Source: Bacteroidales bacterium
GTDB lineage: Bacteria; Bacteroidota; Bacteroidia; Bacteroidales; PUMT01
Direction: 5' to 3'
NCBI GenBank assembly: GCA_007131165.1
Contig: SLRB01000164.1
Span: 1-39,374, forward strand
Length of the DNA: 39,374 nucleotides
Each line of letters starts with the position of its first letter. Position 1 is the first letter of the stretch. Of the stretch, positions 9,004 to 28,581 are shown in pieces. Under the pieces are notes generated by a model that ran no database searches, was not told the origin of the DNA, and was given only the letters and a program-made list of their open reading frames with translations. Made by a program: the position numbers and the translations under genes.

Positions 9004-9522
9004 TCACACCTTTACCTTAGCTGGTTCTGGCTTTTTGGTTTCTGATGGCCCTGTCTTCCGAATCATGTTTATTGTTTCCATGTCGCTGGTATTAAAAACC
9101 TTATCGATATTTACCAGCATTATGAATTTGTCATTGCTTTCAATCATGCCTGAAAGAAAATCAGTTTTGTATGCCTTGCCAATGGAGGGCACCTGCAGAA
9201 TCCGGTCTTCTGTTATCTCCACTACTGCTTTGACGGAATCCACAACTGCGCCAACCATCACCCTCTTCCCGTCAATTTCGGGTTCAAGTACCAGTATGCA
9301 TGTGTTCTTGCTGTCTTCAGCAGCATCCATGCCGAATTTGATCCTGGTATCGATTACCGGTAATACGGTACCCCTGAGGTTAATCACACCCTTGATATAT
9401 TCAGGTGTTTTGGGTACCCTGGTTATCCCTGTCATCTCCAGTATGTTAATCACTTTGCCCACGTGAATCCCGTAGGTTTCTTCTTTCAGCGTGTAGGTTA
9501 AATAAGAGCCTCCCTGTTTCAT
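9004..9522 (-). CDS. cheW: chemotaxis scaffold protein CheW
   Basis: YLTYTL..ETYGI.V..V..I, ITRVPKTPEYIKGVINLRG.VLPVID and G.VVDSV..V. Confidence 0.95.
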   Translation of the reverse strand: MKQGGSYLTYTLKEETYGIHVGKVINILEMTGITRVPKTPEYIKGVINLRGTVLPVIDTRIKFGMDAAEDSKNTCILVLEPEIDGKRVMVGAVVDSVKAVVEITEDRILQVPSIGKAYKTDFLSGMIESNDKFIMLVNIDKVFNTSDMETINMIRKTGPSETKKPEPAKVKV

Positions 9523-10706: not shown

Positions 10707-11699
10707 TCAGTAAAGCCTTTCCGAAACGCAACGGAGGGTCATGCCGGATGATTTGGTATAGCGGCTGAAGGCATAGTGGAACATCGTGCTTGACCCCCCG
10801 TAAAAATAGAGGTATTTGCCATATGTGTCATTATGCTGTGAACCTGTCCAGTATGCACCATAAACTCCCCGTCCGGTAAGCATTCCGTCATCAGGATCGA
10901 GCAGTCCCGCAGCATGCACCCGGAGCTCAGACTCGAAGGCGTGGGTGGAGCTGTTCCATCCATCTTCCCTGTGCACCGTCTCCCACTCCTCTCCGGTCGG
11001 GAGGCGCCATCCATGCCCCAGCAGAAGGGCGCAGGGATCACCGGCCGGCAGCCAGTCGCTGTCCTCTTCAATCCCGGTCATCCATTCCGGTGCCTGTTCC
11101 GGCAGTGTTCCCGTTACCAGGTATCCCCTCTTGTTGTTGAACTGCCAGTACCAGCCTGCCGCCTCCGGAGAATCATCGGTGGGAGACGACGCCGGCCTTG
11201 AAGCACCCAGATTCTGTACGATCCAGCACCTGGGTTCGCCGCTAAGAGACGACTTTACAGTTTGGTAGGTCACTGTTGAACTTTCGGGAGCCACATCGCC
11301 TGCAGAGTGTGAAACAGTAATATCCTCGCACGCCGTTGTGAAGCTTACCTCCTCACCGTAAGCTATGCCTTCTGAATTGACGGCATATGCGCGCACGAAA
11401 TATCTCACCCTGTAATCCAGGCCGGTCATGTAACTTTGAAAGGTACCCAGACCGGGCTTTTCTTCGGTAAGTCCCGAGTTTATATCAATGGTCGGGCCGG
11501 GAGAGGCACTCCACACAATACCCGCGCGGGTTATCTCCCGGTTGCCGTCACCGTAAACATGACCCCCGCTCCTGGCAGAGTTTGAAGATATTTCCCGCAC
11601 TTCAAGGGTAACAAGGTTTGGTGGGGCTATTCTCTCTTCCCTTCCACATCCGGCAAATAACACCGGAAGTGCTGCTATAATAAATGGAAGTGTTCTCAT
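10707..11699 (-). CDS. surface lipoprotein: FN3-like domain plus Fib_succ_major/C-type-lectin-like domain
   Basis: Lipobox LFAG|C followed by GREE. The FN3-like part reads SA.SGG.V...G...IT..GIVWS....PT...Y.VRAYA.N..G.AYGEE.SFTT. The C-terminal part has W..QNLGA, G.YWQF, DPC....GWRLPT..EW, G.YW and G..LRCV. Confidence 0.7.
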   Translation of the reverse strand: MRTLPFIIAALPVLFAGCGREERIAPPNLVTLEVREISSNSARSGGHVYGDGNREITRAGIVWSASPGPTIDINSGLTEEKPGLGTFQSYMTGLDYRVRYFVRAYAVNSEGIAYGEEVSFTTACEDITVSHSAGDVAPESSTVTYQTVKSSLSGEPRCWIVQNLGASRPASSPTDDSPEAAGWYWQFNNKRGYLVTGTLPEQAPEWMTGIEEDSDWLPAGDPCALLLGHGWRLPTGEEWETVHREDGWNSSTHAFESELRVHAAGLLDPDDGMLTGRGVYGAYWTGSQHNDTYGKYLYFYGGSSTMFHYAFSRYTKSSGMTLRCVSERLY

Positions 11700-11821: not shown

Positions 11822-12667
11822 TCAGGTATAAAACATGGCAGATACATAACTCACAACATCTGAAGAGGTCCTGACCGATCCGGAATCTCCCCTGCTCAGG
11901 ATCCGGACCTTGTAACCGGGATCAATTATTGCCGAATACTCCATCAATGCCATTATGGGGCCAAACCCGCAAACGGATAGCTCGTATTCCAGTGCTGCCT
12001 CATAAACACCCCGGCTGTCTTTGCCTGTTACTGCTCTTAGCATTATATCATCCTTTTCCCTGGCTTCTTCTTTAGAAACAAAATGAGAAAAGTCGGAGGA
12101 GGCAATCAGCAGGATGCGCCTGCCGGTCTTTCTCACAGCAGTGTGAATTCTCCCTGCCGCTTCAACTGCCGCATCATGATCCTGGTCAAGCATGTTCAGG
12201 CTGACAATCTGCGTACTCCCGGGAAAAAAATATTTTATATACGGCACTATCACCTCGGCCGAGTGTTCCCTGCGCTGTGCAGCCTGCGAAAAGGGCAGTT
12301 TCATCTCCCCGGCAAATTCAAGGTCTGTCTCCACCGTTCCATTGGGTACCTGCCAGAAGGCATGGTTGTCGACCGATATGGGCGGGCCAAGTCCGTAATG
12401 GTTCGGATGGACAATAACAATTGTTTCGGCAATGAACATGTTACTCCTGGCCGCTTCGAAGAAATGTACCGCCTGGTTTCCGCAATACTCAATGCCGGCG
12501 TGAGGCACAATACCACCAAGCACTGCACCGGGGACAGACGATTTGTCAATCTTCGGCTCTTCTTCCTTCAGGAGCTTTTCCACCAGCCTGTTGAGCTCAT
12601 CCCTGCCGGAAGGATAAAACATGCCGGCAACACCTGGGGGCCTGGTATTTGTTTTTTCTGTATCCAT
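11822..12667 (-). CDS. amrB: AmmeMemoRadiSam system protein B (MEMO1 family)
   Basis: R.PGVAG.FYP, G.VPHAG..Y.G, PNH, EHSAEV..P, IASSDFSH, SVCG.GP and VVSY. The start is probably 12667 (or 12682) rather than 12727. Confidence 0.9.
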   Translation of the reverse strand: MDTEKTNTRPPGVAGMFYPSGRDELNRLVEKLLKEEEPKIDKSSVPGAVLGGIVPHAGIEYCGNQAVHFFEAARSNMFIAETIVIVHPNHYGLGPPISVDNHAFWQVPNGTVETDLEFAGEMKLPFSQAAQRREHSAEVIVPYIKYFFPGSTQIVSLNMLDQDHDAAVEAAGRIHTAVRKTGRRILLIASSDFSHFVSKEEAREKDDIMLRAVTGKDSRGVYEAALEYELSVCGFGPIMALMEYSAIIDPGYKVRILSRGDSGSVRTSSDVVSYVSAMFYT

Positions 12668-12879
12668 GGCAGGTAATGACATTCCTTTTACACACCGGAA
12701 TCTATAAGTGCAAGTTAGTAAAATCAATTTTCAATAACAAGACCCTCCGGTATATCACCCTGGCAGTGGCAATCATGCAACAGGCACTTATACGGCAGCA
12801 GGCTATCTCTCAGTATCCTCAGCATGGGGCAGCATTTTCAAGCGGGGGCATTCAAAACAGCAGTGTTCGCCGGCAGGAG

Positions 12880-13890
12880 TTACCCGGTAATTGCCACACC
12901 TGCTCCGCACCGGCGGCAGTTGCCATGCTCATCAATCCCCTCCGGCGATGCCCGGTAGCCTGTCCTGTTGATGACAACTTTACTGCAGCCTGCACACCTG
13001 GTATCGCCGTTTCCTTCAACCGGCGCCATGTTTCCCGTATAGACATAATGGAGACTTTCAGCGGCAATCCCATAAAACCTCTCCATCAGAGGCAGCGGAG
13101 TGGGTGGTGCATCATAGTGCCATGACGGGAAATACCTTGAGATATGCAGCACTGTATCTGCACCCAGTTCTCCCGCTATCCACCCGGTCATCTCCCTGAA
13201 GCTCTCCTCATTATCGTTCAGCCCCGTAACGACAAGATGGGTGATCTCCAGGTGCAGTCCGCGTCTCCTTATAGCCCTGAGTGTCTTTTTCACGGGTGCA
13301 AGCATTCCGCCGGCAACATCACGGTAGAAGTCATCGCTAAACGATTTGAGGTCAATGTTAAACGCATCGGCAACTTCCAGCAGCTCATCAAGGGGCCGGC
13401 TGTTTACATATCCGTTGCTTACCACCACGTTCTTCATACCCCGGTCCCTGGCAAGTACAGCTATGTCATACATGAACTCATACCATACCACCGGTTCATT
13501 ATATGTATAAGCAATCCCGGCGTTGCCCGGCATGCCGTATGCTTTAGCTGCAACCTCTGCCGGAGTGGTATACTCCAATGCAGGTGTCCCGCTAACAGCT
13601 GCCTGCGAGATAGTATAGTTCTGGCAAAACGTACACCTGAAATTGCATCCCATCGTGCCGACTGAAAAGATATCCCTTCCGGGGAAGAAGTGATATAAAG
13701 GTTTCTTCTCAATGGGATCGGCCGACATCGATACCGGATAACCGTAGGCGGAAGACCAGAGCCTGCCTTCTTCGTTTATGCGCACCCCGCATTTGCCCTG
13801 GCCGCCCTCGCTAATCGTGCAGGAATGAGGGCAAAGTGAACATGTTACCTTCCTGCCGGCACCTGTTTTGTAGAAGCGTGCTTCCTGCAT
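12880..13890 (-). CDS. amrS: AmmeMemoRadiSam system radical SAM enzyme
   Basis: CSLCPHSC...GKCGVR, DPIEKKPLYHF.PG, radical SAM CNFRCTFCQN, AYTYNEP, VSNGY, NIDLK, LHISRYFP, YVY.GN and C-terminal CxxC...CxxC. ATG at 13890 preferred. Confidence 0.95.
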   Translation of the reverse strand: MQEARFYKTGAGRKVTCSLCPHSCTISEGGQGKCGVRINEEGRLWSSAYGYPVSMSADPIEKKPLYHFFPGRDIFSVGTMGCNFRCTFCQNYTISQAAVSGTPALEYTTPAEVAAKAYGMPGNAGIAYTYNEPVVWYEFMYDIAVLARDRGMKNVVVSNGYVNSRPLDELLEVADAFNIDLKSFSDDFYRDVAGGMLAPVKKTLRAIRRRGLHLEITHLVVTGLNDNEESFREMTGWIAGELGADTVLHISRYFPSWHYDAPPTPLPLMERFYGIAAESLHYVYTGNMAPVEGNGDTRCAGCSKVVINRTGYRASPEGIDEHGNCRRCGAGVAITG

Positions 13891-14152
13891 AGGCCAAATG
13901 TTTACTGCCAAGTTATAAAAATTAGCCGGTTATAAAGCAGGGCACAAAGGCTTTTTCGGTTTAACTTTTAAAATGCAGACTGTTAACACCGGTTAGGCCG
14001 CACCCGTACACCTGACACGGACTGTCATGTTACCTGCCAGAGGTGATGCAAATCAACCTTTTTCCCCCAACTATAAACAAAAACCTGCGTAAAAAACTAA
14101 ACACATTCAACATTTTAAAAAAAATAAAAAAACATTACAAGACTATATTTCA

Positions 14153-17100
14153 ATGACATATCCCCTCACACCCCTGCCCTGGCACACACCATGCATCAGA
14201 ATTCTAATGATTTTGACCATGTGGATCATGGCCGTAACAGCATGGAGCCAGGATCCGGAGTGGGATGAAGTAGTAACAATATGTCATGATACATATATAC
14301 TGGAAGCAGACATAAGTTCCAGCGGTACAGGGGGAGAAGGCTGGCAGCTTCTGGGAGGGAGCGGAAGCTTTGACCCGCTGGATACAAGAATAACTACAGT
14401 CACAGGAATTGGCATGGGTGAAAACCGTTACTGGTATGACGGGCCGGGAAACCATGACTATTATATTATGGTAATCCGCGTAGAACCGCCGGTTTTCACT
14501 CTTACCGCCCCTGAAACATTCTGCGGTTCAGATGATATAATAACACTCACACTCTCGGGCTCCGATTCAGACTATCATTATAACCTTTACAGAAACGGGG
14601 CATTGTTCATTGAAGGAACTCCCGGTACGGGCGACCCGTTAACCTGGATTGTCGATGAGCCGGGAACATTTACAGCTGAGGCGGTGCTCAACATGGCGAA
14701 CAGCGATTGCCGGGTATGGATGAATGGCGAGGTTGATGTGATTATCGCACCCCTCCCACAGGTATATCAACTCATTGCACCTCATGGTAATGATATGTGT
14801 GAGGGTTCGCAGGCCACTCTTACCCTTGACGGCTCTGACCCGGGCATAAGTTACCAGCTCTATCTGGGTAATGAGGCGTACGGCACTGCCCGCGGAGGGA
14901 CAGGAGACCCCGTTTCCTGGAGCGTTTCGGAAGCAGGCAGCTACCACGTCGTGGCTGTTGATAACATGACAGGCTGCACGGAAACCATGGAAGGCACTGT
15001 ATCACTAACAGAGCTCCAGTCACCTCAATCATGGCCCTTATCTCCTTCATCGGCAAGCTACTGTGGTGGTGCTGGCGGTTCTGTAACATTAACCCTTGGG
15101 GGCTCACAGACAGATGTAAGCTATCAGCTACTGAGATATGGCAACCCCGTGGACGGATCGCTGCTGGCCGGCACCGGCGGGCCTCTGGAATGGGATGTGT
15201 CTCTGTACGGTCCCTATACCGTTATTGCAACAGATGACATAAACAATTGCCAGTCGCAAATGGATAATGCGGCAGTTGTCTCGCGGCTTACAAAATACAG
15301 TGTCGGCTCTTCGGCAAGCTACTATTGTGAAGGTGAAGGCGGGGTGGATATCACCCTGGGGGGCTCCCAGTCCGGGGTAACATACCGCTTGTACAGGGAC
15401 GGGCACTTCAACAGTTCTAAACCGGGAACAGGGAACCCGCTTACCTGGGAGAACATGAAAGCCGGAACATACCTGGTTTATGCCAGAAAAGACGGTATCG
15501 ATTGCCTGATGGGAGAAACAACGGTTTCTGTTATTACATTTGACGCCAACCTCTTAGATCCTGTTGATGCTATATGCCAGGGAGACCAGGCGCAACTCAA
15601 TGCCACAGGCGGAGAACACTATTTATGGGAGCCCTCTGAAAGCCTCAGCAATAATACGATAGCCGACCCGGTGGCAACCCCGTCGGTTACCACGGAATAC
15701 ACGGTTACCATTACCGATGAATACGGATGCCAGGCATCCCGGTCGGTAACGGTAACCGTACACAGTGTGCCTGTTGCAAATGCCGGCAGCAACAGGACAA
15801 TCTGTTTTGGGGAATCGGTCAGGCTGAACGCGACAGGGGGCACAACCTACCACTGGTCGCCCGCAGAAGGGTTGAGTGCAACAGATATTCCCGATCCGGA
15901 GGCATCACCGGTATCAACAACCCAGTATACAGTAGCTGTTTTCAACGACCAGGGGTGTATGTCGACCGATAAAGTAACTGTTACCGTAAACCCGGTACCC
16001 ACGGTAAATGCAGGTCCTGATGTATCGATATGTGAAGGCGAAGGAACAACCCTTGAGGTAACGGGTGATGCCGGCAGCTACGAGTGGAGTACCGGCGAGA
16101 CTACCGGAAGCATCGCAGTCAGTCCGTTAAGTACCTCTGTCTACAGGGTTACCGGTACATACACTGATACCGGGTGTTCTGCATCAGACGAGGTCAGGGT
16201 TGAAGTCTCGCCCCTGCCCATGGAGTTTGCGGTGACAGGCGGCGGCAGCTTTTGCGAAGGTACAGGCGGATTGCCTGTAGGCCTGAACGGTTCGGAACCA
16301 GGAGTAAATTACTCCCTTTACCGGAACGGCGAATACTCGGGCCCTACCATAGCGGGCGACGGCAATGCCATATCTTTTGGCAATAAGGACATGGAGGGAA
16401 TATACACCGTTTCGGCAATGAATACAGCTTCAGCCTGCACTTACCAGATGGCAGGCCATGCAGAGCTGGTCAAAAACAGGCTGCCCGGCCCTGCACAGTC
16501 AGTTACCGGCAGCAATCCGGTCTGCCCCGGCAGCACGGTTGAATATTCCGTTGCTGAGATTGCCCGTGCTGAAAGCTACAGGTGGGACCTTCCGCCGAAC
16601 GCAACCATAACCGCGGGCAACGGTACCCGTAATATCACGGTATACTATCCGGCAAATGCAGTATCAGGAACGATTTCGGTAAGAGGGGTAAACGACTGCG
16701 GCGAGGGTACGTCATCCGGAGCAGACATCACCGTACGCCTCCTTCCTGAGCCGGCCGGGGTTATTACAGGTGAAACGGTTGTTTGTGAAGGCACCTTCAA
16801 TATCAAATACACCATTGAACCGGTTGCAAATGCAACATCATACCAGTGGGAGCTCCCCCCGGGGGCAATATTGTACAGTACCAGTGTGGATGAAACGCAG
16901 ATCATAGCAGACTATCCCGGGGGCAGCATTACCGGAGATATAACGGTAACACCGGTAAACAGCTGCGGGATGGGCGAACAGGCTTCGCTCGCCATTACGG
17001 TAAACCCCGTTCCCAATCTTACTTTGAGCGAACCGGCAGACGAACTCGACTGTTCAGACAACAGAGTAACCCTGTCAGCATCCTCATCTACCCCTGGCGT

Positions 17101-20100
17101 CAGCTGGTCGTGGACGGCACATAACGGCGGGAATATTACAGGCGGAGCCGGTACAAACCAGCCTGAAGTGAATATGCCCGGAACATACCGTGTAAGTGCA
17201 ACTGCCGGCGGATGCAGTGCCCACGGCGAGATCCGGGTAACACGCAATACTGAAGCACCCGAAGATGTCAAAATCACCAGGTCGGGCGACAGGATAACAT
17301 GCAACGACCCGCTGATGACCCTTACCGCATCAACGACCAGTACTTTTGAGGTAACCTACTCATGGAGCGCCAGCGGGGGAGGGAATATCGTTTCGGGCGA
17401 AAATTCAGCCACGCCGGTGATTGACAGGGGAGGTTACTACACTGTCGTTGCAACCAGTTCAGAAACCTCCTGTATGGCATCACCCGTTACCATATTGATA
17501 GATGAGGATACCGTAAGCCCCGACCTGAGTGATATGGATCTGCTGGTATCAGGAGATATCTCCTGCCTGAATAGCCAGGTTCAGCTTTCTGCAGATCCCC
17601 CGCTCTCAGGCAGTTTTGTATGGTCTTCGGACGACGGAAACATAGACAATCCGCTTTCTCCCTCTCCTTATGCTGATTCTCCAGGGATCTACACGGTAAC
17701 AGTAACAGGAGACAACGGCTGCAGTGCAGAAAAAGCGGTACAGGTATTTTCAGACTACCGGGCCCCTGAAAATATTTGGGTGAACATGAACCCCGGAACC
17801 CTTAATTGCCTTGACGATGAAGTCGTGCTCGAAGGCAGCTCAACAACTGAAGGTGCCCAATACCAGTGGACCGGACCTGGCATTGTTTCGGGCGAAACAA
17901 CGGCCACCCCGGTGGTAAACCTGCCCGGCGAATACACGATGACCGTTACACACCCCGAAAGCGGCTGTACAGGGGAAGCACCGGTTACAGTTGAGGAGGA
18001 TCTGGCAAGTCCCTCTGTAAGCTTTCCCAGCCTACCCGGCACCATAACATGCAATAACCCCTCAATACAGCTGGAAAGCCATACATCGGCCGCCGATCCC
18101 CTCTATGAATGGTTTGACAACAACAATAACCTTATTGAAGGCCAGACAACAGGTACACTCACAGTTACCACGGGAGGCACCTATACACTGAGGGTAACAG
18201 ACCAGGCTAACCACTGCCGGGCTGAAAGCAGCATTACGGTTAAAGAAGATACCACTCCTCCAGGTGCCTCCATAACTGCACCTGCGGCCATAACATGCAA
18301 TGATCCTGAGATCACCCTGCACGGATCATCTCCGGCCGGAGGTGTTACCCCGTTGTGGACCACAACCGGCGGGAATATAGTTACCGGAAGCACTTCATTC
18401 AATCCGTCAGTTAATTCCGCAGGCAGCTATTTGCTTACGGTTACAGATCCCGGTAACGGGTGCAGCTCCGAAGCGCTTGTTATTGTTCAGGAGGACAAGG
18501 AACCTCCTGTTATAGTAAACTTCACCACAGCCCCTTCTCCTTTAAGCTGCATAAATAATTTGACAGAATTAACCGGCAATGCAGCCAATGCAACACTCTT
18601 GTGGAGCGGACCGGAGGGAGCGGCCATAAGCGACCCGTCGGCACCGGCAACTTATGCAGATACTCCCGGAATCTACAGGCTTACGGCTACCAACACAGGA
18701 AATGGTTGCGAAGCATACAGGGAAGCAGAAGTTACAATGGTTGAAGATATACCCGAAGGCCTGGAAATACTGCCGTTTGAAAACCTCAGTTGTGCCCGGG
18801 AAACAACCACACTCACTGCAACTTCATCAACAGCCGGAACAACTTTCCGGTGGGAAGCCGGCGAAGAAGGCACGATCCTCTCCGATCCCGGACATGAAAC
18901 AGTAACCATAGGGTCGGCCGGAACATATACTGTGTATGCTGCCCATCCGGTTACCGGATGCGAGACAGAAAGCACGGCTGAGGCAGGATTCCTTTCTGCC
19001 GCCCCAACAATAAACCTGCCTGCCGGACTTCCGGAAAAGATTACATGTAATAACCTGTTGACCGGGGTGCAACTCAGCGCCACTGTAGAACCAGCCGGAG
19101 CAGCGCTGCTGTGGGAAGGCCCGGGGACAATTGATAATCACACGACTGACAGCCCTACTGTTTATGAACCCGGCCTTTATACCATTACTGCGGCTCACCC
19201 TGAGACCGGCTGCACATCGTTCAAAACACTCGAAGTTAAAAGCAATATGGTTTCACCCGAAATCATCTCTTTCAATGGTCCGGGAACCGTTACGTGTGCC
19301 GAACCCGGAATTACAATCAGCCCTGAACTTTCTGAAGGTTCGTTTTCTTACCGGTGGGCAGAAGCATCGGCAGATGCAACAATAAAGGGCTCAGAAACGA
19401 ATAAAGCGGTCGTGGTTACTTCAGGAGGAATTTATACACTCACGGTAACCGACCTCGTTAACGGATGCGAAACATCAAAAAGCGTGGCAATTGATGAAGA
19501 TAAGGTTAAACCGGGAATATCGGTCGATGACAATCCCCCCGACATAACCTGCAAAAACAGCCTCTCCGGACTTTACGGGACCAGCGCGACATCAGGTGTT
19601 GCTTATCTGTGGGATGGTCCGGGAAACATTATCAATCCTGCAACCGAAACACCCACAGTCGACCAGCCGGGAACATATACCCTTACGGTAACCGACATGG
19701 CAAACGGCTGCATATCAACGGCATCTGTAACAGTTGGTGAAAACAAGGTGCCTCCCCCGGCCCCCGCGGTTTTAGACCCGGAGGAGCTGTCATGCAATAA
19801 TGAATGGACGGAATTGCAGGTTTCTCCATATATCGAAGGGGTGGACTATCACTGGTCTGCTAACGGTACCGGTACAATTATTAACGGAAACACCGATGTT
19901 GCGGCTGTAAACTCACCAGGAACATATACTGTAACGGTAACCGACCGCATAAACGGCTGTACAAGCTCTGCAGAGGTTACTGTATCAATGAATGAAGAAG
20001 TACCGGATGTGGCAATAACGGGCGGACCCTATATGATCACCTGTGCAACCACCTCCCTTACGATCACCGGAAGCAGCCCGGATGGTGCAAACCCGGTCTG

Positions 20101-23100
20101 GACCACAGATGGCGGGAATATTATAAGCGACCGGTACCAGATGGACATCGAGGTGGATGCACCCGGCGAATATACCCTTACAGTCCGCCATCCCGTATCA
20201 GGCTGCCCCTCATCGGCCACTGTTACAGCCGGCCACACCGAAGAGGTGCCGCTTATAGATGTCGACAGCTATCCCCAAAAAATTACATGCGGAAACGGTA
20301 CTGTCCAACTTTATGGTGCTCCGGCAGATCTTTCACATAGTTTTGAATGGTCGACTGAAAACGGGAACATCGTTTCCGGATCTGACGGGTTCGAACCTGT
20401 TGTAGACAGGGCGGGGACTTATTTGATAACGGTTACTGACCCTGTAACCGGATGCAGCAACCAGGCTGGTATAACAGTGGAAGAGGATATGGCCGCCCCG
20501 GAATTCACTATTGCCGATCCCGGTCAGTTTACCTGCGAAACCGGTTATGTGCAACTGAAGGCCACAGTTACATCAGGAGAGACCGATGTTGATTATGCCT
20601 GGACAACCGGTGGTGGGGGCACTATTTGGCCGGGTGACGAGAATGTGGCCAATCCAAGGGTCACAACAACCGGCACATATACGCTTACTGTTACCAATAA
20701 CACCAACCTGTGCACAACAACCAAAGATGTAACGGTCAGTGAGAACACTGTCCCGCCAAATGTTTCGGCCGATAAAAATCCCGATAAGCTTACCTGCGAA
20801 AGGACGGAGGTTATTCTTTCAGGAAACTCCAATACCGGTGGGGCCACTTTTAAATGGTCGTCTGCAGATGGACATCCGGTTTACAACTCCACAACAAGAC
20901 ACCCCAGGGTAACCATGCCGGGTACATATATACTGACGGTGACCGATCCTGCCAATGGATGCACCGCCCAGACAGAGGTGACTGTAATAAGCGATACGGA
21001 AGCACCTCACGTGCATATCGAGCCCGGCCCGGGTATTCTTACCTGCAGCGTAACATCGGTCATGCTTGAAGGGAGTTCAAATACTGCCGGTGTAAGTTAC
21101 AGGTGGACAGGCCCGGTACTGGTTGAAAGCCCTGGTAACAAGGTAGTGTACGTAAGCGAGCCAGGCAGGTATTATCTTACTGTCACAAGGAATTCTACAG
21201 GATGTACATCTACTGCTTACATTGATATTATACAGGATACCGAAGTACCTGCTCCCCCGTCTGCTGACGATGCAATTGCATGCTTTGGCGGCGATCCTGT
21301 TACCCTTGCAGCTACCGGAAGCAACATCCGCTGGTATGACCACAGCAATCTTTCTGACGGGGCTCTCATAAAAGAAGACGATACGTATACCCCGGCAGAA
21401 AACGGAGCAGGGAACCACTATTACTATGTTACCCAGACCTCAGCAAACGGTTGCGAGAGTCCTGCAATACAGGTAAGATATACCATCAGGGAACTGCCTA
21501 CGGCACCGGCAACAGTAAGTGGTGAGGTATGCGAAGGCAGCCCGAATCCCCGCCTCAGGGCCATAGGCAGCAATATAAGCTGGTACGGTGATCATGGCGG
21601 ACCGGTGCTTGCTACTGGTGAATACTATACACCTGACCCTTCGGTAAATGCACCCGGGAAATATACATTCTATGCAAGCCGGACAGATGAGCATGGCTGT
21701 GAAAGTGATCTTACACCGGCCACCCTCACAATAAGGGAAATTCCCGCGGTTCCGGTAATCAGCGAAGCGCTGCTCGAAACCTGCGCCGGCGAACCAAACC
21801 CTCCCTTTTCAGCAACAGGCAAAAACATACGCTGGTACGGAAGCGCTACGGCCACAAACCACCTTTACAGCGGAAACGAGTACACTTCAACGAAAGTGAA
21901 TCCCGGAAGCTATGACTATTTTGTTTCACAAACGAGTGATCATGGCTGTGAGAGTGACAGGGCCGCAGCATCACTTGTGATAGTTGATAACCCGTCCAGG
22001 TTCGATGTTACCGGTGGAGGGACTTTCTGCGAGAACGCTTCCGGTGTGAGCGTAGGACTTGATAGTTCTGAGGCGGGAGTCGAATATACCCTTTGGCTTG
22101 ATGGCTCAACCATTATGGGAGATATTACCGGCACAGGAGCAGAGATTGATTTCGGTCTCCAGGATACGGAGGGTACATATACTATTACTGCAACCGGCAA
22201 TAACGGATGCAGCACGCCTATGAACGGAGCAGTAAGCGTATTGGTAAACCTCCTCCCTGCAACACCTGGTGTGATAAGCGGACAGGATTACGTGTGCCAG
22301 GGCAGCAGTGATGTACTTTATGAAATCGATCCTGTTGCCGGTGCAACTCATTACCACTGGGAAGTTCCGGCCGGATCGGTTATATCGTCGGGCAACGGCA
22401 CACGGTCAATAAGGGTTGATTTTTCGGCTGCGGCCGAAAGTGGCGCTATAAGAGTACGTGCAGTGAACAGTTGCGGTAACGGGCCTGTTTCGGGCGATTA
22501 TCTGGTAAATGTTGACAAACTGCCGGCTCCGGCAGGAAATATCACTGCAACCCCATTCAACAGCGAAGTGTGCAGGGGCGATCAGGAGGTTGTCTTTGAA
22601 GTTCCTGTAATAGATCATGCTACCTCATATGAGTGGTTCCTTCCTGCAGGTGCAACTATTTTACAGGGTGCCGGTACACGCACTGTAAAAGTTGGGTTCT
22701 CATCCGAAGCTGCCACCGGGAACCAGGAGGTTCGCGTCAGGGGAGTAAACGGATGCGGACAGGGCGAATTATCCGCTCCGCATACAGTGGCTGTGTATGC
22801 TCCGCCTGCGGTATCGGCAGGTGCCGACCAGCATTTATGCAGTGATAACACTGCCCTGCAGGGAAGTCCGGTACCCGGCGGCGGAACTGCACGTTGGGAA
22901 ACGGTGGCTGGTTATGCAGTGTTCAGCAGCAACAACATACCAGACCCTGGTATCAGCTCCCTGGCTATGGGGGAAAACATATTTACCTACACTGTAACCC
23001 TTGAAGCATGTTCGGTTACTGATACGGTGAGAATTTTCAACAACCAGGTGCTTGTCGATGCAGGGAGTGACAGGGTAATCTGCTCCGAAGAGATAACACT

Positions 23101-26100
23101 TCAGGGGTCAGCGGTACCCGAAAATGCTACAGGGTTATGGACAGCTGTAACCGGCAGCGCCTCATTTTCCGATGCCAGCCGGAGTAATTCAAAAGCCGGC
23201 AATTTTGATTACGGCGATAACAGGCTGCGGTGGACTATCACTAAAAACGGGTGCAAAAGCAGTGATGAGGTAACAATTACAAATCACCGCCCCCCGATGG
23301 CAAATGCTGGTAATGATATCACCACATGTAACAGCGAGGCTTACCTTGATGCCTCACATCCTTCGCAGGGAGAGGGAGAATGGCAGGTTATATCAGGCAA
23401 GGCAGTGTTCGATAACCCGTCTGATCCGCAAACCCGGGCACAGAGCCTTGACAGGGGAATGAACAGGATTGCCTGGGTTGTGAGCAACCACGGATGCACG
23501 CTGGGCGACACCATTACTATTACCAACATCGATATTGACATCAGCGCAGGCGAAAACCAGGAGCTGTGCGATTCACGTACCACCCTTGACGGAACAGTTC
23601 CCCCTGAAGGTTCAACCGGAGAATGGTCGGTGGCAAGGGGAGCGGCAACTTTCATGGACAGGAATGCCCATGATACAAGGGTGTCGGGACTGGCGTCGGG
23701 TACTAATGAGGTGGTATGGACAATCACCAGGAACGGCTGCAGGTTTTCCGACACGGTCATCCTTACCAACAATATGCCCACTCAGGCAAATGCGGGCCCC
23801 GACCAGGAAGTTACAGTCAACCATGCGCAGCTGGAAGCCAATAACCCGGCTATTGGTACAGGCATATGGTCGGTTATGAACGGATCGGGAATATTCAGCG
23901 ATCCAGCCGGCAATACCGCAACAGTAACTGAACTCTCACCCGGGCCCAATACTTTCCGCTGGACCATAACGCATAATGGCTGTGAATCAACAAGTGATGT
24001 TACGATCAACAATGGAAGCCTTGAATCGATCTATGCAGGTGAGGACCAGCAACTATGCTCAGATGCAACCATGCTGGAGGCCACTGAGCCACCTTTCGGG
24101 TTCGGGGTATGGACGATCAGGCAGGGCACCGCACGGTTTGAAAATAACGAACAGGCAGATACCAGGGTCTATGATCTCGGACGGGGTGAAAATATCCTGC
24201 GGTGGAGCGTTACCATAGGTTCTACAGAATACTATGATGAGGTAACCATCACCAACAATATGCCTACTGTTGCCAATGCCGGTACCGGCAGGTCATTGTG
24301 CTCCTCATCGTTTACCCTCGCGGGTAACGAGCCGCTGACAGGTTCAGGCAGGTGGACGATAGAGGGGGGCTCGGCAGTGATAGACGACCAGTCTTTGCAT
24401 AACTCACCTGTTTATGATCTGGCGCAGGGGAGCAACCTTTTCAGGTGGACCATCACCAATGCAAACTGTGTATCATCAGACATAGTGGTCATAAGCAATG
24501 ATATTCCCACAACACCCGACGCGGGTGAGGATATATCATCCTGCGACGGAACAGCCGAGCTGTTCCCCAACACACCGACCATAGGTACAGGCGGATGGAG
24601 CGTTATCAGCGGGTCAGGTTCATTTGACGGGAACTCTGTAAGCAACCTTGCAAACGGAGAAAACAGGTTACTGTACACCATCAGGAACAACCAGTGTGAA
24701 TTGTCGGACGAAGTAGTCGTTACCAGCTATAAACCAACTATTGCCGATGCCGGGTACAATATGAATGTATGTGTTGATTCTGTTGACCTTAATGCAAACC
24801 AGCCTAACCAGTCAATAGGTGAAACGGGAAGGTGGACGGTGATCAGCGGATCGGGCAGGTTCGAAGATCCCGGAAGGGCAAATACCACCGTACACGATCT
24901 TGCTCCCGGGAGAAATGTATTCAGATGGACGGTCGACAACCAGGGGTGCACCAGCTACGATGAGATTGAGGTTAGTTACGACCATATTCCCGCACATGCA
25001 GGGTATGATATAACAACATGTGACAGTGAAGTAACCCTCAACGCCAACAACCCCGGAAATGGTGCCGGCGAATGGACAATAAGAGGCGGATCGGGATCAG
25101 CGGTCTTTGAAAGCCCCAACAGTCCGAATACTCATGTAAGCGGACTGGACAGGGGTAACAACATTCTAAGATGGACTATAACCAATAACCGGTGTGTTTC
25201 CTTTGACGAGATAACAGTCCGCAACAGCAGTCCCAGTAACGCCTGGGCCGGATCGGACCAGATAATCTGTACAGATTCGGTTCAGCTGTCTGCCCGCAAC
25301 CCGGTAACCGGGCAGGGTACATGGTCGGTTATCAACGGGTCGGGCAGGTTTGATGATGACAGCCAGTACAATACTGCCGTCCGTGGGGTAGGCCCGGGCG
25401 CAAACACCTTCAGGTGGACTGTTGAGCATGAGGGCTGCACTTCAACCGATGAGGTGGTCATTAGGAACAATAAACCGCTTGACACCTACGCGGGGAATGA
25501 CCAGGTGCTGTGCGACGATACCGCTATCCTCACGGCCAATCAGCCCGAACAGGGAACCGGCGTGTGGAGCATTGTTCAGGGAGCCGGTGTTATTGAAGAT
25601 GCCTACAGCAACGAAACTGTTGTAAACGCCCTTGCCCCGGATGAAAACATTTTGCGGTGGACTGTAACAAACGGCCAATGCAGCGATTACAGCGATATCA
25701 GGATTGTGAACAACAAACCGGCCACTGCACTGGCGGGAGCAGACAGGGTGATCTGCAGCGATAAGACCGTGCTTGAAGGCAATATCCCCCTGGAAGGTAC
25801 GGGAAGATGGAGCGTTATAAGCGGCTCGGGGTTTTTCGAAGATGCTGCTGCACATAACTCCGAGGTTACAAGGTTGTCGCGCGGGAGAAATATTCTGCGC
25901 TGGACCATCACAAAGGAAAACTGCGCCTCAATAAGCGATGTAATCATTCAAAATGATATGCCCAGCATACCAAATGCAGGAGCAGACATCGCAGTATGCG
26001 GCAACAGCACTCCTCTTAACGGCAACATGCCGGCTGTCGGAACTGGAAGGTGGAGCCTCGTAAGCGGTTCGGGTTCATTCGACGATCCGGCCAGGAGCAA

Positions 26101-27256
26101 CACTTCAGTAACCGGCCTGGGGCAGGGAGTCAACGTTTTAAGATGGACCATCACCAACAACGAATGTTCGTTATCAGACGAAGCTGAGGTGAGAAACAAC
26201 ACTACCGATGTATATGCAGGCCCTGACCAGCTGGTTTATGAAGATGCCGCTACCCTTTCGGGGAATACACCGGCGAGGGGTAACGGACTATGGAGCGTCG
26301 ATGCCGGGGGAGGCAGTATTAACGATCCCTCCTCACCTGAAACAAGGGTTGAGGGCATCAAGGAAGGGGTCAATACTTTTGTATGGGCAGTGGATATCGA
26401 CGGGTGCATATCATCAGATGAGGTCAGGATCACATATTACCGGCAGCCTGTATCCAGCTTTTCGGTAAGCCATACCGGGGGATGCCCTCCACTGCAGGTA
26501 AGATTCACAAAAACAACCACCGGCAATTACCCGTTCAGGTGGTACCTGGGCGAGGAGGGGTCCGGAACCCTTGAAGAAAACCCCGTCTACACATATGACG
26601 AGCCTGGCAGATATGCAGCAAGGCTTTACATAACCGGAGCCGACGGACAGGAGGTGGTAAGCGAAAGGATAATTACAGTACATGAACCTCCTGCAGCAAG
26701 CTTCGAGCTTGCCCCTGCTGAACTTTACATTCCCGGCAATGAGCTGAGAACATACAACTATTCATATAACAGTGAATATTATTTGTGGGACTTCGGCGAC
26801 GGAAACACCTCCGATGAAGTCAACCCGGTACACATGTACGAGAACGAGGGTTCTTTCGATGTCAGCCTTAAAGTATGGTCGGCCGAAGGATGTACCGATT
26901 CCCTCACTTACGGGATGCCGGTCACGGTAACCCAGACAACACGAGTCAGGTTCCCGTCGGCCTTTACCCCCAATGAGGCAGGAGGAAGCGGAGGCAGGTA
27001 CGACCGCAATGATTTCTCAAACCAGGTATTTTACCCGGTTATGATAAACGGCAATATCGATAACTACAGGCTGGAGATCTTCAACCGATGGGGGGTGAAG
27101 TTGTTTGAGAGCGACGATATAGAGGTCGGATGGGACGGATACTATCGCGGACAACTGGTGGCAGAGGATATCTATATATTCAGGGTTACCGGCAGGCTTA
27201 ACAGCGGGGAGAAGTTTACAGAAACAGGCGACTTCCTTCTGATGAGAAGAGATTGA
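14153..27256 (+). CDS. giant (4367 aa) T9SS-secreted multi-Ig/PKD-repeat protein with type-B (gliding-motility-associated) C-terminal sorting domain
   Basis: Signal peptide ending AWS|Q, about 51 tandem ~80-90 aa beta-rich domains, two PKD domains (YLWDFGDG...NP.H.Y...G.F.V.L.V) and CTD FPSAFTPN...N..FYP....IFNRWG..LF.....GWDG.Y.G......Y. Followed by PorP/SprF. Confidence 0.95.
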   Translation: MTYPLTPLPWHTPCIRILMILTMWIMAVTAWSQDPEWDEVVTICHDTYILEADISSSGTGGEGWQLLGGSGSFDPLDTRITTVTGIGMGENRYWYDGPGNHDYYIMVIRVEPPVFTLTAPETFCGSDDIITLTLSGSDSDYHYNLYRNGALFIEGTPGTGDPLTWIVDEPGTFTAEAVLNMANSDCRVWMNGEVDVIIAPLPQVYQLIAPHGNDMCEGSQATLTLDGSDPGISYQLYLGNEAYGTARGGTGDPVSWSVSEAGSYHVVAVDNMTGCTETMEGTVSLTELQSPQSWPLSPSSASYCGGAGGSVTLTLGGSQTDVSYQLLRYGNPVDGSLLAGTGGPLEWDVSLYGPYTVIATDDINNCQSQMDNAAVVSRLTKYSVGSSASYYCEGEGGVDITLGGSQSGVTYRLYRDGHFNSSKPGTGNPLTWENMKAGTYLVYARKDGIDCLMGETTVSVITFDANLLDPVDAICQGDQAQLNATGGEHYLWEPSESLSNNTIADPVATPSVTTEYTVTITDEYGCQASRSVTVTVHSVPVANAGSNRTICFGESVRLNATGGTTYHWSPAEGLSATDIPDPEASPVSTTQYTVAVFNDQGCMSTDKVTVTVNPVPTVNAGPDVSICEGEGTTLEVTGDAGSYEWSTGETTGSIAVSPLSTSVYRVTGTYTDTGCSASDEVRVEVSPLPMEFAVTGGGSFCEGTGGLPVGLNGSEPGVNYSLYRNGEYSGPTIAGDGNAISFGNKDMEGIYTVSAMNTASACTYQMAGHAELVKNRLPGPAQSVTGSNPVCPGSTVEYSVAEIARAESYRWDLPPNATITAGNGTRNITVYYPANAVSGTISVRGVNDCGEGTSSGADITVRLLPEPAGVITGETVVCEGTFNIKYTIEPVANATSYQWELPPGAILYSTSVDETQIIADYPGGSITGDITVTPVNSCGMGEQASLAITVNPVPNLTLSEPADELDCSDNRVTLSASSSTPGVSWSWTAHNGGNITGGAGTNQPEVNMPGTYRVSATAGGCSAHGEIRVTRNTEAPEDVKITRSGDRITCNDPLMTLTASTTSTFEVTYSWSASGGGNIVSGENSATPVIDRGGYYTVVATSSETSCMASPVTILIDEDTVSPDLSDMDLLVSGDISCLNSQVQLSADPPLSGSFVWSSDDGNIDNPLSPSPYADSPGIYTVTVTGDNGCSAEKAVQVFSDYRAPENIWVNMNPGTLNCLDDEVVLEGSSTTEGAQYQWTGPGIVSGETTATPVVNLPGEYTMTVTHPESGCTGEAPVTVEEDLASPSVSFPSLPGTITCNNPSIQLESHTSAADPLYEWFDNNNNLIEGQTTGTLTVTTGGTYTLRVTDQANHCRAESSITVKEDTTPPGASITAPAAITCNDPEITLHGSSPAGGVTPLWTTTGGNIVTGSTSFNPSVNSAGSYLLTVTDPGNGCSSEALVIVQEDKEPPVIVNFTTAPSPLSCINNLTELTGNAANATLLWSGPEGAAISDPSAPATYADTPGIYRLTATNTGNGCEAYREAEVTMVEDIPEGLEILPFENLSCARETTTLTATSSTAGTTFRWEAGEEGTILSDPGHETVTIGSAGTYTVYAAHPVTGCETESTAEAGFLSAAPTINLPAGLPEKITCNNLLTGVQLSATVEPAGAALLWEGPGTIDNHTTDSPTVYEPGLYTITAAHPETGCTSFKTLEVKSNMVSPEIISFNGPGTVTCAEPGITISPELSEGSFSYRWAEASADATIKGSETNKAVVVTSGGIYTLTVTDLVNGCETSKSVAIDEDKVKPGISVDDNPPDITCKNSLSGLYGTSATSGVAYLWDGPGNIINPATETPTVDQPGTYTLTVTDMANGCISTASVTVGENKVPPPAPAVLDPEELSCNNEWTELQVSPYIEGVDYHWSANGTGTIINGNTDVAAVNSPGTYTVTVTDRINGCTSSAEVTVSMNEEVPDVAITGGPYMITCATTSLTITGSSPDGANPVWTTDGGNIISDRYQMDIEVDAPGEYTLTVRHPVSGCPSSATVTAGHTEEVPLIDVDSYPQKITCGNGTVQLYGAPADLSHSFEWSTENGNIVSGSDGFEPVVDRAGTYLITVTDPVTGCSNQAGITVEEDMAAPEFTIADPGQFTCETGYVQLKATVTSGETDVDYAWTTGGGGTIWPGDENVANPRVTTTGTYTLTVTNNTNLCTTTKDVTVSENTVPPNVSADKNPDKLTCERTEVILSGNSNTGGATFKWSSADGHPVYNSTTRHPRVTMPGTYILTVTDPANGCTAQTEVTVISDTEAPHVHIEPGPGILTCSVTSVMLEGSSNTAGVSYRWTGPVLVESPGNKVVYVSEPGRYYLTVTRNSTGCTSTAYIDIIQDTEVPAPPSADDAIACFGGDPVTLAATGSNIRWYDHSNLSDGALIKEDDTYTPAENGAGNHYYYVTQTSANGCESPAIQVRYTIRELPTAPATVSGEVCEGSPNPRLRAIGSNISWYGDHGGPVLATGEYYTPDPSVNAPGKYTFYASRTDEHGCESDLTPATLTIREIPAVPVISEALLETCAGEPNPPFSATGKNIRWYGSATATNHLYSGNEYTSTKVNPGSYDYFVSQTSDHGCESDRAAASLVIVDNPSRFDVTGGGTFCENASGVSVGLDSSEAGVEYTLWLDGSTIMGDITGTGAEIDFGLQDTEGTYTITATGNNGCSTPMNGAVSVLVNLLPATPGVISGQDYVCQGSSDVLYEIDPVAGATHYHWEVPAGSVISSGNGTRSIRVDFSAAAESGAIRVRAVNSCGNGPVSGDYLVNVDKLPAPAGNITATPFNSEVCRGDQEVVFEVPVIDHATSYEWFLPAGATILQGAGTRTVKVGFSSEAATGNQEVRVRGVNGCGQGELSAPHTVAVYAPPAVSAGADQHLCSDNTALQGSPVPGGGTARWETVAGYAVFSSNNIPDPGISSLAMGENIFTYTVTLEACSVTDTVRIFNNQVLVDAGSDRVICSEEITLQGSAVPENATGLWTAVTGSASFSDASRSNSKAGNFDYGDNRLRWTITKNGCKSSDEVTITNHRPPMANAGNDITTCNSEAYLDASHPSQGEGEWQVISGKAVFDNPSDPQTRAQSLDRGMNRIAWVVSNHGCTLGDTITITNIDIDISAGENQELCDSRTTLDGTVPPEGSTGEWSVARGAATFMDRNAHDTRVSGLASGTNEVVWTITRNGCRFSDTVILTNNMPTQANAGPDQEVTVNHAQLEANNPAIGTGIWSVMNGSGIFSDPAGNTATVTELSPGPNTFRWTITHNGCESTSDVTINNGSLESIYAGEDQQLCSDATMLEATEPPFGFGVWTIRQGTARFENNEQADTRVYDLGRGENILRWSVTIGSTEYYDEVTITNNMPTVANAGTGRSLCSSSFTLAGNEPLTGSGRWTIEGGSAVIDDQSLHNSPVYDLAQGSNLFRWTITNANCVSSDIVVISNDIPTTPDAGEDISSCDGTAELFPNTPTIGTGGWSVISGSGSFDGNSVSNLANGENRLLYTIRNNQCELSDEVVVTSYKPTIADAGYNMNVCVDSVDLNANQPNQSIGETGRWTVISGSGRFEDPGRANTTVHDLAPGRNVFRWTVDNQGCTSYDEIEVSYDHIPAHAGYDITTCDSEVTLNANNPGNGAGEWTIRGGSGSAVFESPNSPNTHVSGLDRGNNILRWTITNNRCVSFDEITVRNSSPSNAWAGSDQIICTDSVQLSARNPVTGQGTWSVINGSGRFDDDSQYNTAVRGVGPGANTFRWTVEHEGCTSTDEVVIRNNKPLDTYAGNDQVLCDDTAILTANQPEQGTGVWSIVQGAGVIEDAYSNETVVNALAPDENILRWTVTNGQCSDYSDIRIVNNKPATALAGADRVICSDKTVLEGNIPLEGTGRWSVISGSGFFEDAAAHNSEVTRLSRGRNILRWTITKENCASISDVIIQNDMPSIPNAGADIAVCGNSTPLNGNMPAVGTGRWSLVSGSGSFDDPARSNTSVTGLGQGVNVLRWTITNNECSLSDEAEVRNNTTDVYAGPDQLVYEDAATLSGNTPARGNGLWSVDAGGGSINDPSSPETRVEGIKEGVNTFVWAVDIDGCISSDEVRITYYRQPVSSFSVSHTGGCPPLQVRFTKTTTGNYPFRWYLGEEGSGTLEENPVYTYDEPGRYAARLYITGADGQEVVSERIITVHEPPAASFELAPAELYIPGNELRTYNYSYNSEYYLWDFGDGNTSDEVNPVHMYENEGSFDVSLKVWSAEGCTDSLTYGMPVTVTQTTRVRFPSAFTPNEAGGSGGRYDRNDFSNQVFYPVMINGNIDNYRLEIFNRWGVKLFESDDIEVGWDGYYRGQLVAEDIYIFRVTGRLNSGEKFTETGDFLLMRRD
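14492..15541 (+). repeat. 4 tandem type-A protein repeats (C.G....L.L.GS.....Y.LY..G......GTG.P..W.....G.Y.V.A....C..M)
   Basis: Manual alignment of the translation; diverged at DNA level. Confidence 0.8.
17012..21250 (+). repeat. 17 tandem type-B protein repeats (P..ITC.....L......Y.W....G.I......P.V..PG.Y.LTVT...NGC......V.ED...P)
   Basis: 17 units counted by hand, each with two Cys and one conserved Trp. Confidence 0.85.
21251..21994 (+). repeat. 3 tandem Ig_7-like repeats (C.G.P...L.A.G.NI.WY.......G..YT....G...YV.QT...GCES)
   Basis: NIRWY/NISWY and GCES motifs recur three times. Confidence 0.8.
22808..26449 (+). repeat. 15 tandem type-C protein repeats (AG.D...C.....L.AN.P..G.G.WSV.SGSG.F.D.....T.V..L..G.N.LRWTI.N..C.S.D.V.I.N)
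   Basis: 15 units of about 81 aa counted by hand. Confidence 0.88.
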
Positions 27257-27392
27257 GAATTAATATGCTTTTTGGTTCTTTTAGATATTAAGTATGATAA
27301 GAGTGGCAAACAATACAGCAAAACGAACCGGCAGCAAAAGCTGCCGGGCAACAGGAGTATTGCGAGGGAATGTCCATAGGCTGAAAAGCGCA

Positions 27393-28379
27393 ATGCTGCG
27401 ATTTCCGTTAATGGTACTTTTAACGGTACTGGTATTTTCGAACTCCTATTCGCAAAACCCGCAGTTTTCGCAATTCTATTCGGCACCCCTGAACCTGGGG
27501 CCATCGATGGCAGGATCTGCCAATGAAGGGCGCCTGGTTATGAACTACAGGGACCAATGGCCGAGGCTCTCAGGCCGGTTCGTGACCTATGCAGTATCCT
27601 ACGACCAGTACATAGATGATTTCAACAGTGGTATCGGGATCAGCGTGCTTCATGACAACGCGGGCGGCAGCAAGCTTACCTCAACAATGGCGGGAATAAG
27701 CTACTCTTACAGGATCAAAGCGGGGAGAGACCTTTTTTTTCAACCCGGACTGAAAACATATTACTACCAGAGAAGGATCAACTTCGAAAAGCTTACGTTT
27801 GCCGACCAGTTCTATGGGGAGACAGTCCTTCCCACAAGCATTCAGACCCCGCCTGAGCAGAACAGGGGACAGGTAAATTTCAGCTCATCACTGCTTGTTT
27901 TTACGGGCAATGTGTGGGCCGGGGCTACAGTTGGCCATTTGATGCAGCTCAATCAGGCTCTGGCCGACGATCCTGCATACATACCGCTCAGCCTTACCGG
28001 TTTTGGAGGGGTAACTTTCAGGCTGGCAGGAACACAACGGAACAGGGACGACCAGTCGGTCTCACTGGCCTGGCAGTTCAGACGGCAGTCGCAAATCAAC
28101 CAGCTCGACCTTGGAGCATATTACTTCAGGATGCCTTTCAGGATCGGTGTATGGTACAGGGGCATGCCCGATACGGGAACACCCTGGAACCGCGATGCTG
28201 TGGCAATATCCGGGGGTATACTTCTCGACCAGCTGCTCATCGGTTACAGTTATGATATGACGATCTCATCGATGTTACAGACAACCGGGGGTGCGCACGA
28301 AATAGCTGTAATCTACAGGTTTGGGAAACTCATTTCGGAGCTGAGGGGAATAGGGCAGGTCCCCTGCCCCCAGTTCTGA
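27393..28379 (+). CDS. PorP/SprF family T9SS outer-membrane protein
   Basis: Signal peptide ...SYS|QNPQFSQFY.APL.L.P..AG, NYRDQWP, SGIG....D.AG, G.WYRG, IGYSYD, GAHEI and C-terminal CP.F. It lies directly after a type-B CTD gene. ATG at 27393 gives a normal signal peptide (the track start is 27294). Confidence 0.92.
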   Translation: MLRFPLMVLLTVLVFSNSYSQNPQFSQFYSAPLNLGPSMAGSANEGRLVMNYRDQWPRLSGRFVTYAVSYDQYIDDFNSGIGISVLHDNAGGSKLTSTMAGISYSYRIKAGRDLFFQPGLKTYYYQRRINFEKLTFADQFYGETVLPTSIQTPPEQNRGQVNFSSSLLVFTGNVWAGATVGHLMQLNQALADDPAYIPLSLTGFGGVTFRLAGTQRNRDDQSVSLAWQFRRQSQINQLDLGAYYFRMPFRIGVWYRGMPDTGTPWNRDAVAISGGILLDQLLIGYSYDMTISSMLQTTGGAHEIAVIYRFGKLISELRGIGQVPCPQF

Positions 28380-28581
28380 AACCACTTGAGGGGATTAGCG
28401 CCGTGCCCGGCAATAATGACATGGTGCAGCAACGAAAAGGCCGGCAGTTTATTAAATTCTGTTTTCACCTGCATTCAGGATTTCAGCAATTTCAGGATTG
28501 GGCAACGGCCATATTGACAGCGCCTTACCAACTGCTTAATCCTGCACCGGTAATATAAGCGGTTTCAAGGCTGAGCAGCAA

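Follow-up and report, generated by a model that had tools for sequence, protein, structure and literature searches.

Locus and Domain Organization of P0001

The window analyzed here was the whole stretch of 39,374 nucleotides that makes up contig SLRB01000164.1, from a soda-lake Bacteroidota bacterium. An open reading frame (ORF) at 14153..27256 on the forward strand encoded a protein of 4367 amino acids (aa), P0001, which is very probably a type B fiber of a type IX secretion system (T9SS), with each domain tied to the next by an intramolecular disulfide between the early cysteine (E) of domain n and the late cysteine (L) of domain n+1. The protein was segmented into 51 immunoglobulin (Ig)-like domains (one partial C, ten A1/A2/A3, 17 B, six A4/A1/A3, 15 C and two PKD), followed by a C-terminal sorting domain (CTD). 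The features of the gene are as follows.

14153..27256, forward strand: giant T9SS type B cargo gene P0001 (signal peptide, 51 Ig-like domains and CTD)
14153..14248, forward strand: signal peptide, residues 1–32, ending ...MAVTAWS/QD and holding Cys14; the putative cleavage site was read by eye
14240..14488, forward strand: domain 1, residues 30–112, partial C-type, with E (Cys44) and without L (N-terminal end condition)
14480..17002, forward strand: domains 2–11, types A1/A2/A3 (Pfam Ig_7, PKD_6), with E and L in each
17009..21241, forward strand: domains 12–28, 17 type B repeats (Pfam Ig_7, weak match), with E and L in each
21239..22792, forward strand: domains 29–34 (A4 three times, A1, A3 twice), with E and L in each
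22796..26443, forward strand: domains 35–49, 15 type C repeats (Pfam K319L-like PKD); repeats 5 and 15 without E, repeat 6 without L
26441..26929, forward strand: PKD1–PKD2 pair, with 136 residues from E of PKD1 (Cys4111) to L of PKD2 (Cys4247)
26951..27247, forward strand: T9SS type B sorting domain (CHU_C/TIGR04131), free of Cys

Pfam matches in P0001 (eight families at E ≤ 0.01) included PKD_6, Ig_7, K319L-like PKD, PKD and the C-terminal CHU_C. Types A1, A2, A4 and B were assigned to Ig_7, type C to K319L-like PKD, and A3 to PKD_6. Profile comparison with hhalign related type B to A1, A2, A4 and C at 91–96% probability (B–C 93%, B–A2 96%), and in these alignments E matched E and L matched L; A3 (PKD_6) had no link to the other domain families in this small comparison. 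A profile of three consecutive C-type domains matched 15499 protein clusters at E ≤ 0.001, so this domain type is widespread. The leader ended in an AW(S/A/G)Q site common to the orthologues of P0001, and the C-terminus scored just above threshold with both sorting-domain models (TIGR04131, 35.8 bits against a cut-off of 35; CHU_C, 27.9 against 27). The Bacteroidota O-glycosylation-like motif D-(S/T)-(A/I/L/V/M/T) occurred 9 times in P0001 versus 20.7 ± 4.4 times in composition shuffles.

Cysteine Register of P0001

P0001 contained 97 Cys, of which one (Cys14, in the signal peptide) was the sole Cys outside the E/L register. The other 96 belonged to the mature chain and, based on family alignments and hidden Markov models (HMMs) of the 51 domains, all fell at E (alignment column 15) or L (the column in the F–G turn). 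They alternated along the chain with gaps of 24–33 aa from late to early and 48–62 aa from early to late. An earlier, sequence-only reading of this DNA had described about 51 domains with one early and one late Cys each, which the segmentation confirmed, and it had listed six missing Cys whose positions and codons were recovered exactly:

Domain 1: without L
nt 23813: C repeat 5 without E (Thr3221)
nt 24224: C repeat 6 without L (Thr3358)
nt 26237: C repeat 15 without E (Tyr4029)
nt 26648: PKD1 without L (Gln4166)
nt 26750–26752: PKD2 without E (Thr4200)

The same reading held that no domain of P0001 lacked both Cys and that the CTD had none, and both statements were borne out. When E(n) was paired with L(n+1), all 96 Cys were used in 48 pairs with spans of 124–153 residues, so that its count of 48 staples over 50 junctions was reproduced from the segmentation. 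For six losses among 102 positions, C(50,2) = 1225 of the C(102,6) = 1.35e9 possible arrangements obey this rule (p = 9.1e-7, a value that includes the two end conditions of the rule and treats all positions as equally likely to be lost). The two junctions that remained unpaired were 39–40 and 49–50:

23981..24058, forward strand: unstapled junction 39–40, Cys3277 to Cys3302
26405..26485, forward strand: unstapled junction 49–50, Cys4085 to Cys4111, where the last C repeat meets PKD1

Residues 3277–3301 and 4085–4110 were the only internal stretches between Cys44 and Cys4247 without a predicted disulfide loop. Because successive loops overlap, each of the other peptide bonds in this interval was spanned by one or two predicted disulfides, and a single nick elsewhere would therefore not be expected to sever the fiber. 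The staple-free linker, at 24 residues, did not exceed the other linkers in length, and its conservation was no different from theirs (identity 0.44, range 0.41–0.57), giving no sequence support for a special hinge. Among 86 relatives sharing the PKD-PKD-CTD tail, the last C repeat lacked E in 85, and the staple-free state of junction 39–40 was kept in 46, with a single origin.

The C-type consensus read as seven strands; strand B directly follows the E Cys, and the L Cys occupies the turn that leads into the last strand. In a sandwich of seven strands with its termini at opposite poles, the A–B turn would lie at the C-terminal pole of the domain and the F–G turn at the N-terminal pole. E(n) would then face L(n+1) at each junction, and the E and L of one domain would be a domain length apart.

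Covariation of Cysteines in Relatives

Six HMMs were run over three sets of relatives, which gave 376 proteins with matches in all: set 1 (P0001 and 119 long homologues), set 2 (120 shorter homologues) and set 3 (136 new representatives with mutual identity under 50%). Of the 9719 pairs of adjacent domains, 9509 had both E(n) and L(n+1) and 194 had neither, against 16 single losses (E alone, 9; L alone, 7). The sequence-only reading had proposed Cys covariation across homologues as a check, and independent loss in homologues as a finding that would count against it. The losses were instead coupled, and E(n)–L(n+1) was the only pairing compatible with the covariation. The rule held in every repeat family, as had been claimed, namely in the Ig_7-type A1, A2, A4 and B, in PKD_6, in K319L-like PKD and in PKD domains.

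Inspection of the 16 single losses placed 11 in set 3 and 5 in sets 1 and 2. In set 3, the Cys was shifted by more than 3 residues in 7 of the 11, and in P0289 and P0373 the E Cys was lost and a new Cys, apparently a relocated staple partner, was found in the inter-domain linker beside the same junction. In sets 1 and 2, the losses in P0082 and P0156 stemmed from poor or truncated alignments, and P0107 and P0214 had extra non-canonical Cys. An HMM-free check based on Cys spacing only, refined because long domains can mimic a missing Cys, recovered the long-short-long signature expected of joint loss 91 times, plus 29 with a long domain following, and few lone losses. The paralogues in the same genome also obeyed the rule (e.g., a '2E- 2-L' unit before the CTD).

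Joint losses of E(n) and L(n+1) were spread over no fewer than 12 separate architectures and, by family, over five kinds of pair (C–C, A2–A2, A3–A3, B–A4 and B–B), with those of the C–C pair occurring at several positions of the array, and none of the distinct events followed another pairing. They cannot be explained by segment replacement, because two retained Cys always separate the two lost residues. In Winogradskyella-type proteins (P0136, P0166, P0177, P0215, and P0226) about every second junction was stapled, in a '2-L 2E-' pattern, and hence many of their domains had one Cys. A supermodule composed of the B array, three A4 domains, A1 and A3 was present in two or three copies in P0003, P0004, P0010, and P0016, and all staples were kept in these copies, which fits the earlier suggestion of a plug-and-staple arrangement that allows domain shuffling.

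If early Cys are bonded to the late Cys of the following domain, L is dispensable in the first domain of a chain and E in the last one. First domains within 60 residues of Met1 (42 callable) were E-only in 24 cases, had both Cys in 17 and were L-only in 1, while last domains before a CTD-sized tail (97 callable) were L-only in 60 cases, had both in 33 and were E-only in 4. For comparison, the two one-Cys states made up 2.1% and 2.2% of 9204 internal domains. In two-Cys PKD tails, the spacing was 135–137 residues in 41 of 42. The trend at the chain ends was strong but not absolute, and thus orphan Cys seem to be tolerated there.

Comparison with GhpA

A phmmer search against PDB sequences gave one strong match, GhpA of Aureispira sp. 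CCB-QB1 (9flp_A, E = 8.7e-193), for which seven further entries were matched (9fls, 9flu, 9flv, 9flw, 9flx, 9fly, and 9g8b). According to its report, GhpA is a T9SS substrate of 5898 residues with about 52 Ig-like repeats, its stem is a hollow heptameric, seven-stranded tube of 240 nm, and the protein is heavily glycosylated (bioRxiv 10.1101/2024.01.29.577165). Cryo-electron microscopy (cryoEM) revealed many intramolecular disulfides joining neighboring Ig-like domains, such as Cys2988–Cys3140, which are held to underlie the straight and rigid stem, whereas the lateral contacts are attributed to hydrogen bonds; the report also cites a translocon of 70 Å (bioRxiv 10.1101/2024.01.29.577165).

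The best phmmer stretch on GhpA lay in the C-type array, and the alignment had the same alternation of early and late Cys. With domains 29–31 of P0001 as query, GhpA residues 2813–2982 aligned with query positions 4–175 and residues 3080–3317 with positions 10–248. By arithmetic on these coordinates, residue 2988 of GhpA falls on an E column and residue 3140 on that of L in the domain after it. The span of this bond, 152 residues, compares with 150–151 for the A1-type E(n)–L(n+1) pairs of P0001, and the inter-domain disulfides in the cryoEM structure match the pairing rule put forward in the sequence-only reading.

The two proteins resemble each other as giant T9SS cargo proteins with Ig-like repeats, the same Cys register and a PorP homologue encoded downstream. 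However, GhpA has an adhesin-like hook module of about 1400 residues at its N-terminus, whereas the Ig array of P0001 starts at residue 30, and phmmer gave no significant match of P0001 to GhpA before GhpA residue 1191. GhpA also has PorE (ghpC) after PorP (ghpB), whereas the carrier gene of P0001 is followed by a convergent class I Glu/Gln-tRNA synthetase gene. Without the hook module and without a downstream PorE, P0001 is not an orthologue of GhpA.

Alternative Arrangements of the Cysteines

Two Cys about 55 residues apart in each domain would suit a naive reading as the classical intradomain disulfides of many Ig domains, E(n)–L(n). This is extremely unlikely, given that 658 of 10876 domains lacked exactly one of their own Cys and none lacked both. 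Such bonds would leave six Cys unpaired in P0001 and one in most Winogradskyella-type domains, would not explain why L is lost in first domains and E in last domains, and disagree with the 152-residue span of the example bond reported for GhpA. Nor could a shift of the domain boundaries, which the sequence-only reading had raised against itself, make the bonds intradomain, as a span of about 139 residues exceeds repeats of 76–88 residues. Bonds between the two Cys nearest to each junction, L(n)–E(n+1), would join residues only 24–33 positions apart, the shortest distance in sequence, and L(n) and E(n+1) were jointly absent 25 times. Yet 538 single absences stood against these 25, and 23 of the 25 were found in set 2, where the Winogradskyella-type proteins give rise to them through their alternation, a pattern that E(n)–L(n+1) bonds predict as well. 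This pairing would again leave six Cys of P0001 without a partner, and it is scarcely credible.

Covariation cannot separate partners within a chain from partners on different chains, and the seven-stranded tube of GhpA makes it conceivable that E(n)–L(n+1) bonds link the chains of a bundle staggered by one domain. In the GhpA report the disulfides are called intramolecular, and the lateral contacts are put down to hydrogen bonding. An unstaggered neighbor within the chain suits the end conditions, and two-domain proteins, e.g., the '2E- 2-L' unit encoded in the same genome, fit within-chain pairing too. Bonds between chains are therefore regarded as unlikely, although less so than the two pairings above. 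It is very unlikely that the Cys are unbonded on the surface, serving as free thiols, as metal ligands or only in folding intermediates. No Pfam DSBA match was obtained in the genome, which would agree with unbonded Cys, but the genome encodes a VKOR homologue, the covariation is strictly pairwise in an exported surface protein, and many disulfides were reported for the homologue GhpA.

Several observations weigh against intramolecular E(n)–L(n+1) bonds in P0001 or limit the evidence for them. Raw counts of joint losses overstate their independence, being inflated by shared descent. When a quick tree of the 86 relatives with the PKD-PKD-CTD tail was built by maximum likelihood, the commonest joint loss changed state once on it; the C-array junction concerned, between the eleventh and tenth domains from the end, was free in 46 and stapled in 40, and an independent-pair test on it yielded one pair only, too few for a sign test. 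The evidence consequently rests on the distinct events. The single losses in P0023, P0263 and P0266 (one junction) have no explanation. Both Cys were retained by 17 of the 42 first domains and by 33 of the 97 last ones, and 36 of the 86 same-tail relatives, including P0011–P0017, kept a third tail Cys, the early one of PKD2 (...LRCYNY), which the Cys-free CTD leaves without a late partner (Thr4200 occupies this position in P0001). The Cys of GhpA were placed by coordinate arithmetic from the table of matching stretches rather than by residue-level alignment, and the positions of E and L at opposite poles derive from the consensus strand pattern and general Ig topology. Finally, the genome, which is 90% complete, gave no Pfam DSBA match.

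Secretion, Carrier and Surroundings

The gene for a PorP/SprF-family carrier, P0002, was found 37 nt downstream of P0001:

27294..28379, forward strand: PorP/SprF-family carrier gene P0002 (TIGR03519, 202 bits against a cut-off of 90.55)

The true start of P0002 is probably Met34. Its single Cys, Cys358 (nt 28365–28367), was located in a C-terminal ...VPCPQF tail, and a (V/I)PCP(Q/R/E)F end was conserved in 12 of 12 carrier loci (P0002 and 11 relatives, L005–L015), down to 40% identity. The pairing of cargo and carrier was found in 5 of 12 fetched loci, own window included. The genome (3.4 Mb in 382 contigs, 90% complete) carried SprA (SprA_N, 640 bits), GldJ, GldK and the VKOR homologue, and its GldK had one Cys besides the lipobox Cys. 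With a sorting domain, an adjoining carrier, and a hydrophobic leader together with SprA in the genome, P0001 has the sequence hallmarks of a T9SS type B cargo protein.

Type B substrates have dedicated carriers, and SprB of Flavobacterium johnsoniae is a type B T9SS adhesin of about 200 nm with its own PorP/SprF-family carrier encoded nearby (PMC12635249). In that species, SprF's periplasmic C-terminal tail carries a Cys-x-Cys that is disulfide-bonded to Cys343 of GldK (PMC12635249). The system described here is similar in that the carrier of P0001 ends in a tail with Cys and the genome encodes GldJ and GldK, but SprF holds two Cys in its Cys-x-Cys, compared with a single Cys in P0002 and all 11 relatives. 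The SprB repeat (PF13573) was not among the eight Pfam families detected in P0001 at E ≤ 0.01. P0001 is thus not SprB, as it lacks SprB repeats and the tail of its carrier has one Cys rather than two. By analogy, a covalent link of P0002 to the GldK gliding track through its single Cys seems possible.

The scheme that fits these features is one in which Sec exports the P0001 chain and its disulfides form in the periplasm, where the VKOR homologue may take part in oxidation. The folded chain would then pass through SprA and stay bound to its own carrier P0002 on the outer membrane. The 51 tandem Ig-like domains would form a long cell-surface fiber, in which bonds from the early Cys of each domain to the late Cys of the next would provide 48 covalent staples across the 50 junctions. 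Such a fiber may be stiffened and tolerant of nicks, and its length may be about 200 nm, judging from the 240 nm of GhpA and the approximately 200 nm of SprB.

The flanks of P0001 and P0002 were housekeeping or unrelated (tRNA synthetases, a methyl-accepting chemotaxis protein, CheW, a Memo-like protein and a radical SAM enzyme). The genes for the methyl-accepting chemotaxis protein (7015–8781) and CheW (9004–9522), both on the reverse strand, were present in a genome that also has GldJ and GldK. The Memo-like gene stood beside the radical SAM gene (11822–13911, reverse strand), and a neighboring ORF at 10707–11699 had no Pfam match at 1e-5. A DUF805 RNA motif from Rfam was detected at 1027–1096 on the reverse strand (53.4 bits; gathering score, 51.1). 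Promoter and terminator scans around P0001 and P0002 gave nothing above shuffles. DNA nearly identical to 23500–28400 was found in soda-lake and salt-lake metagenomes of several studies. Short contigs from two metatranscriptome libraries of one study (X8 and X9) matched pieces of both genes at 99–100%, which is only a hint of expression.

Implications for T9SS Surface Fibers

The mechanics of giant repeat adhesins, which are difficult proteins to work on, tend to be guessed from the number of domains. In a large class of Bacteroidota surface fibers, two Cys positions per domain very probably tell which neighbors are covalently tied. This would explain how different domain families can be mixed and duplicated without breaking the chain, as in the supermodule-bearing relatives, and would allow cheap annotation of rigid stretches and free junctions across thousands of uncharacterized proteins. 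Other solutions to the stiffening of tandem Ig-like stalks include Ca2+ at the linkers, as in the Marinomonas ice-binding adhesin and Salmonella SiiE, and intradomain isopeptide bonds, as in Gram-positive pilins. In contrast to the stapling proposed for P0001, the reinforcement in these proteins comes from those means rather than from a disulfide at every junction. The reading of P0001 as a stapled rod is well supported, yet it is not a new principle. The phenomenon itself was published for GhpA in 2024, in the form of stapled Ig-like stems, and the novelty implied by the sequence-only reading was overstated. The present work broadens what a single sentence and a supplementary figure of the GhpA report convey, and literature searches found no statement of a general E(n)–L(n+1) rule.

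It is possible, although doubtful, that E(n)–L(n+1) is a general rule, readable from sequence, for T9SS stalks built of Ig_7, PKD_6 and K319L-like PKD domains, with the free junctions acting as programmed joints or points of breakage. Such a rule would let a 'staple map' drawn from sequence predict which stretches of a fiber are covalently laddered, and so able to withstand nicks and force, and which junctions remain free. The two junctions left unstapled in the family of P0001 would be such joints near the cell-proximal base, one lying ten domains short of the end of the C array and the other directly ahead of the PKD pair. Proteins stapled at only every second junction would then have been built for another degree of stiffness.

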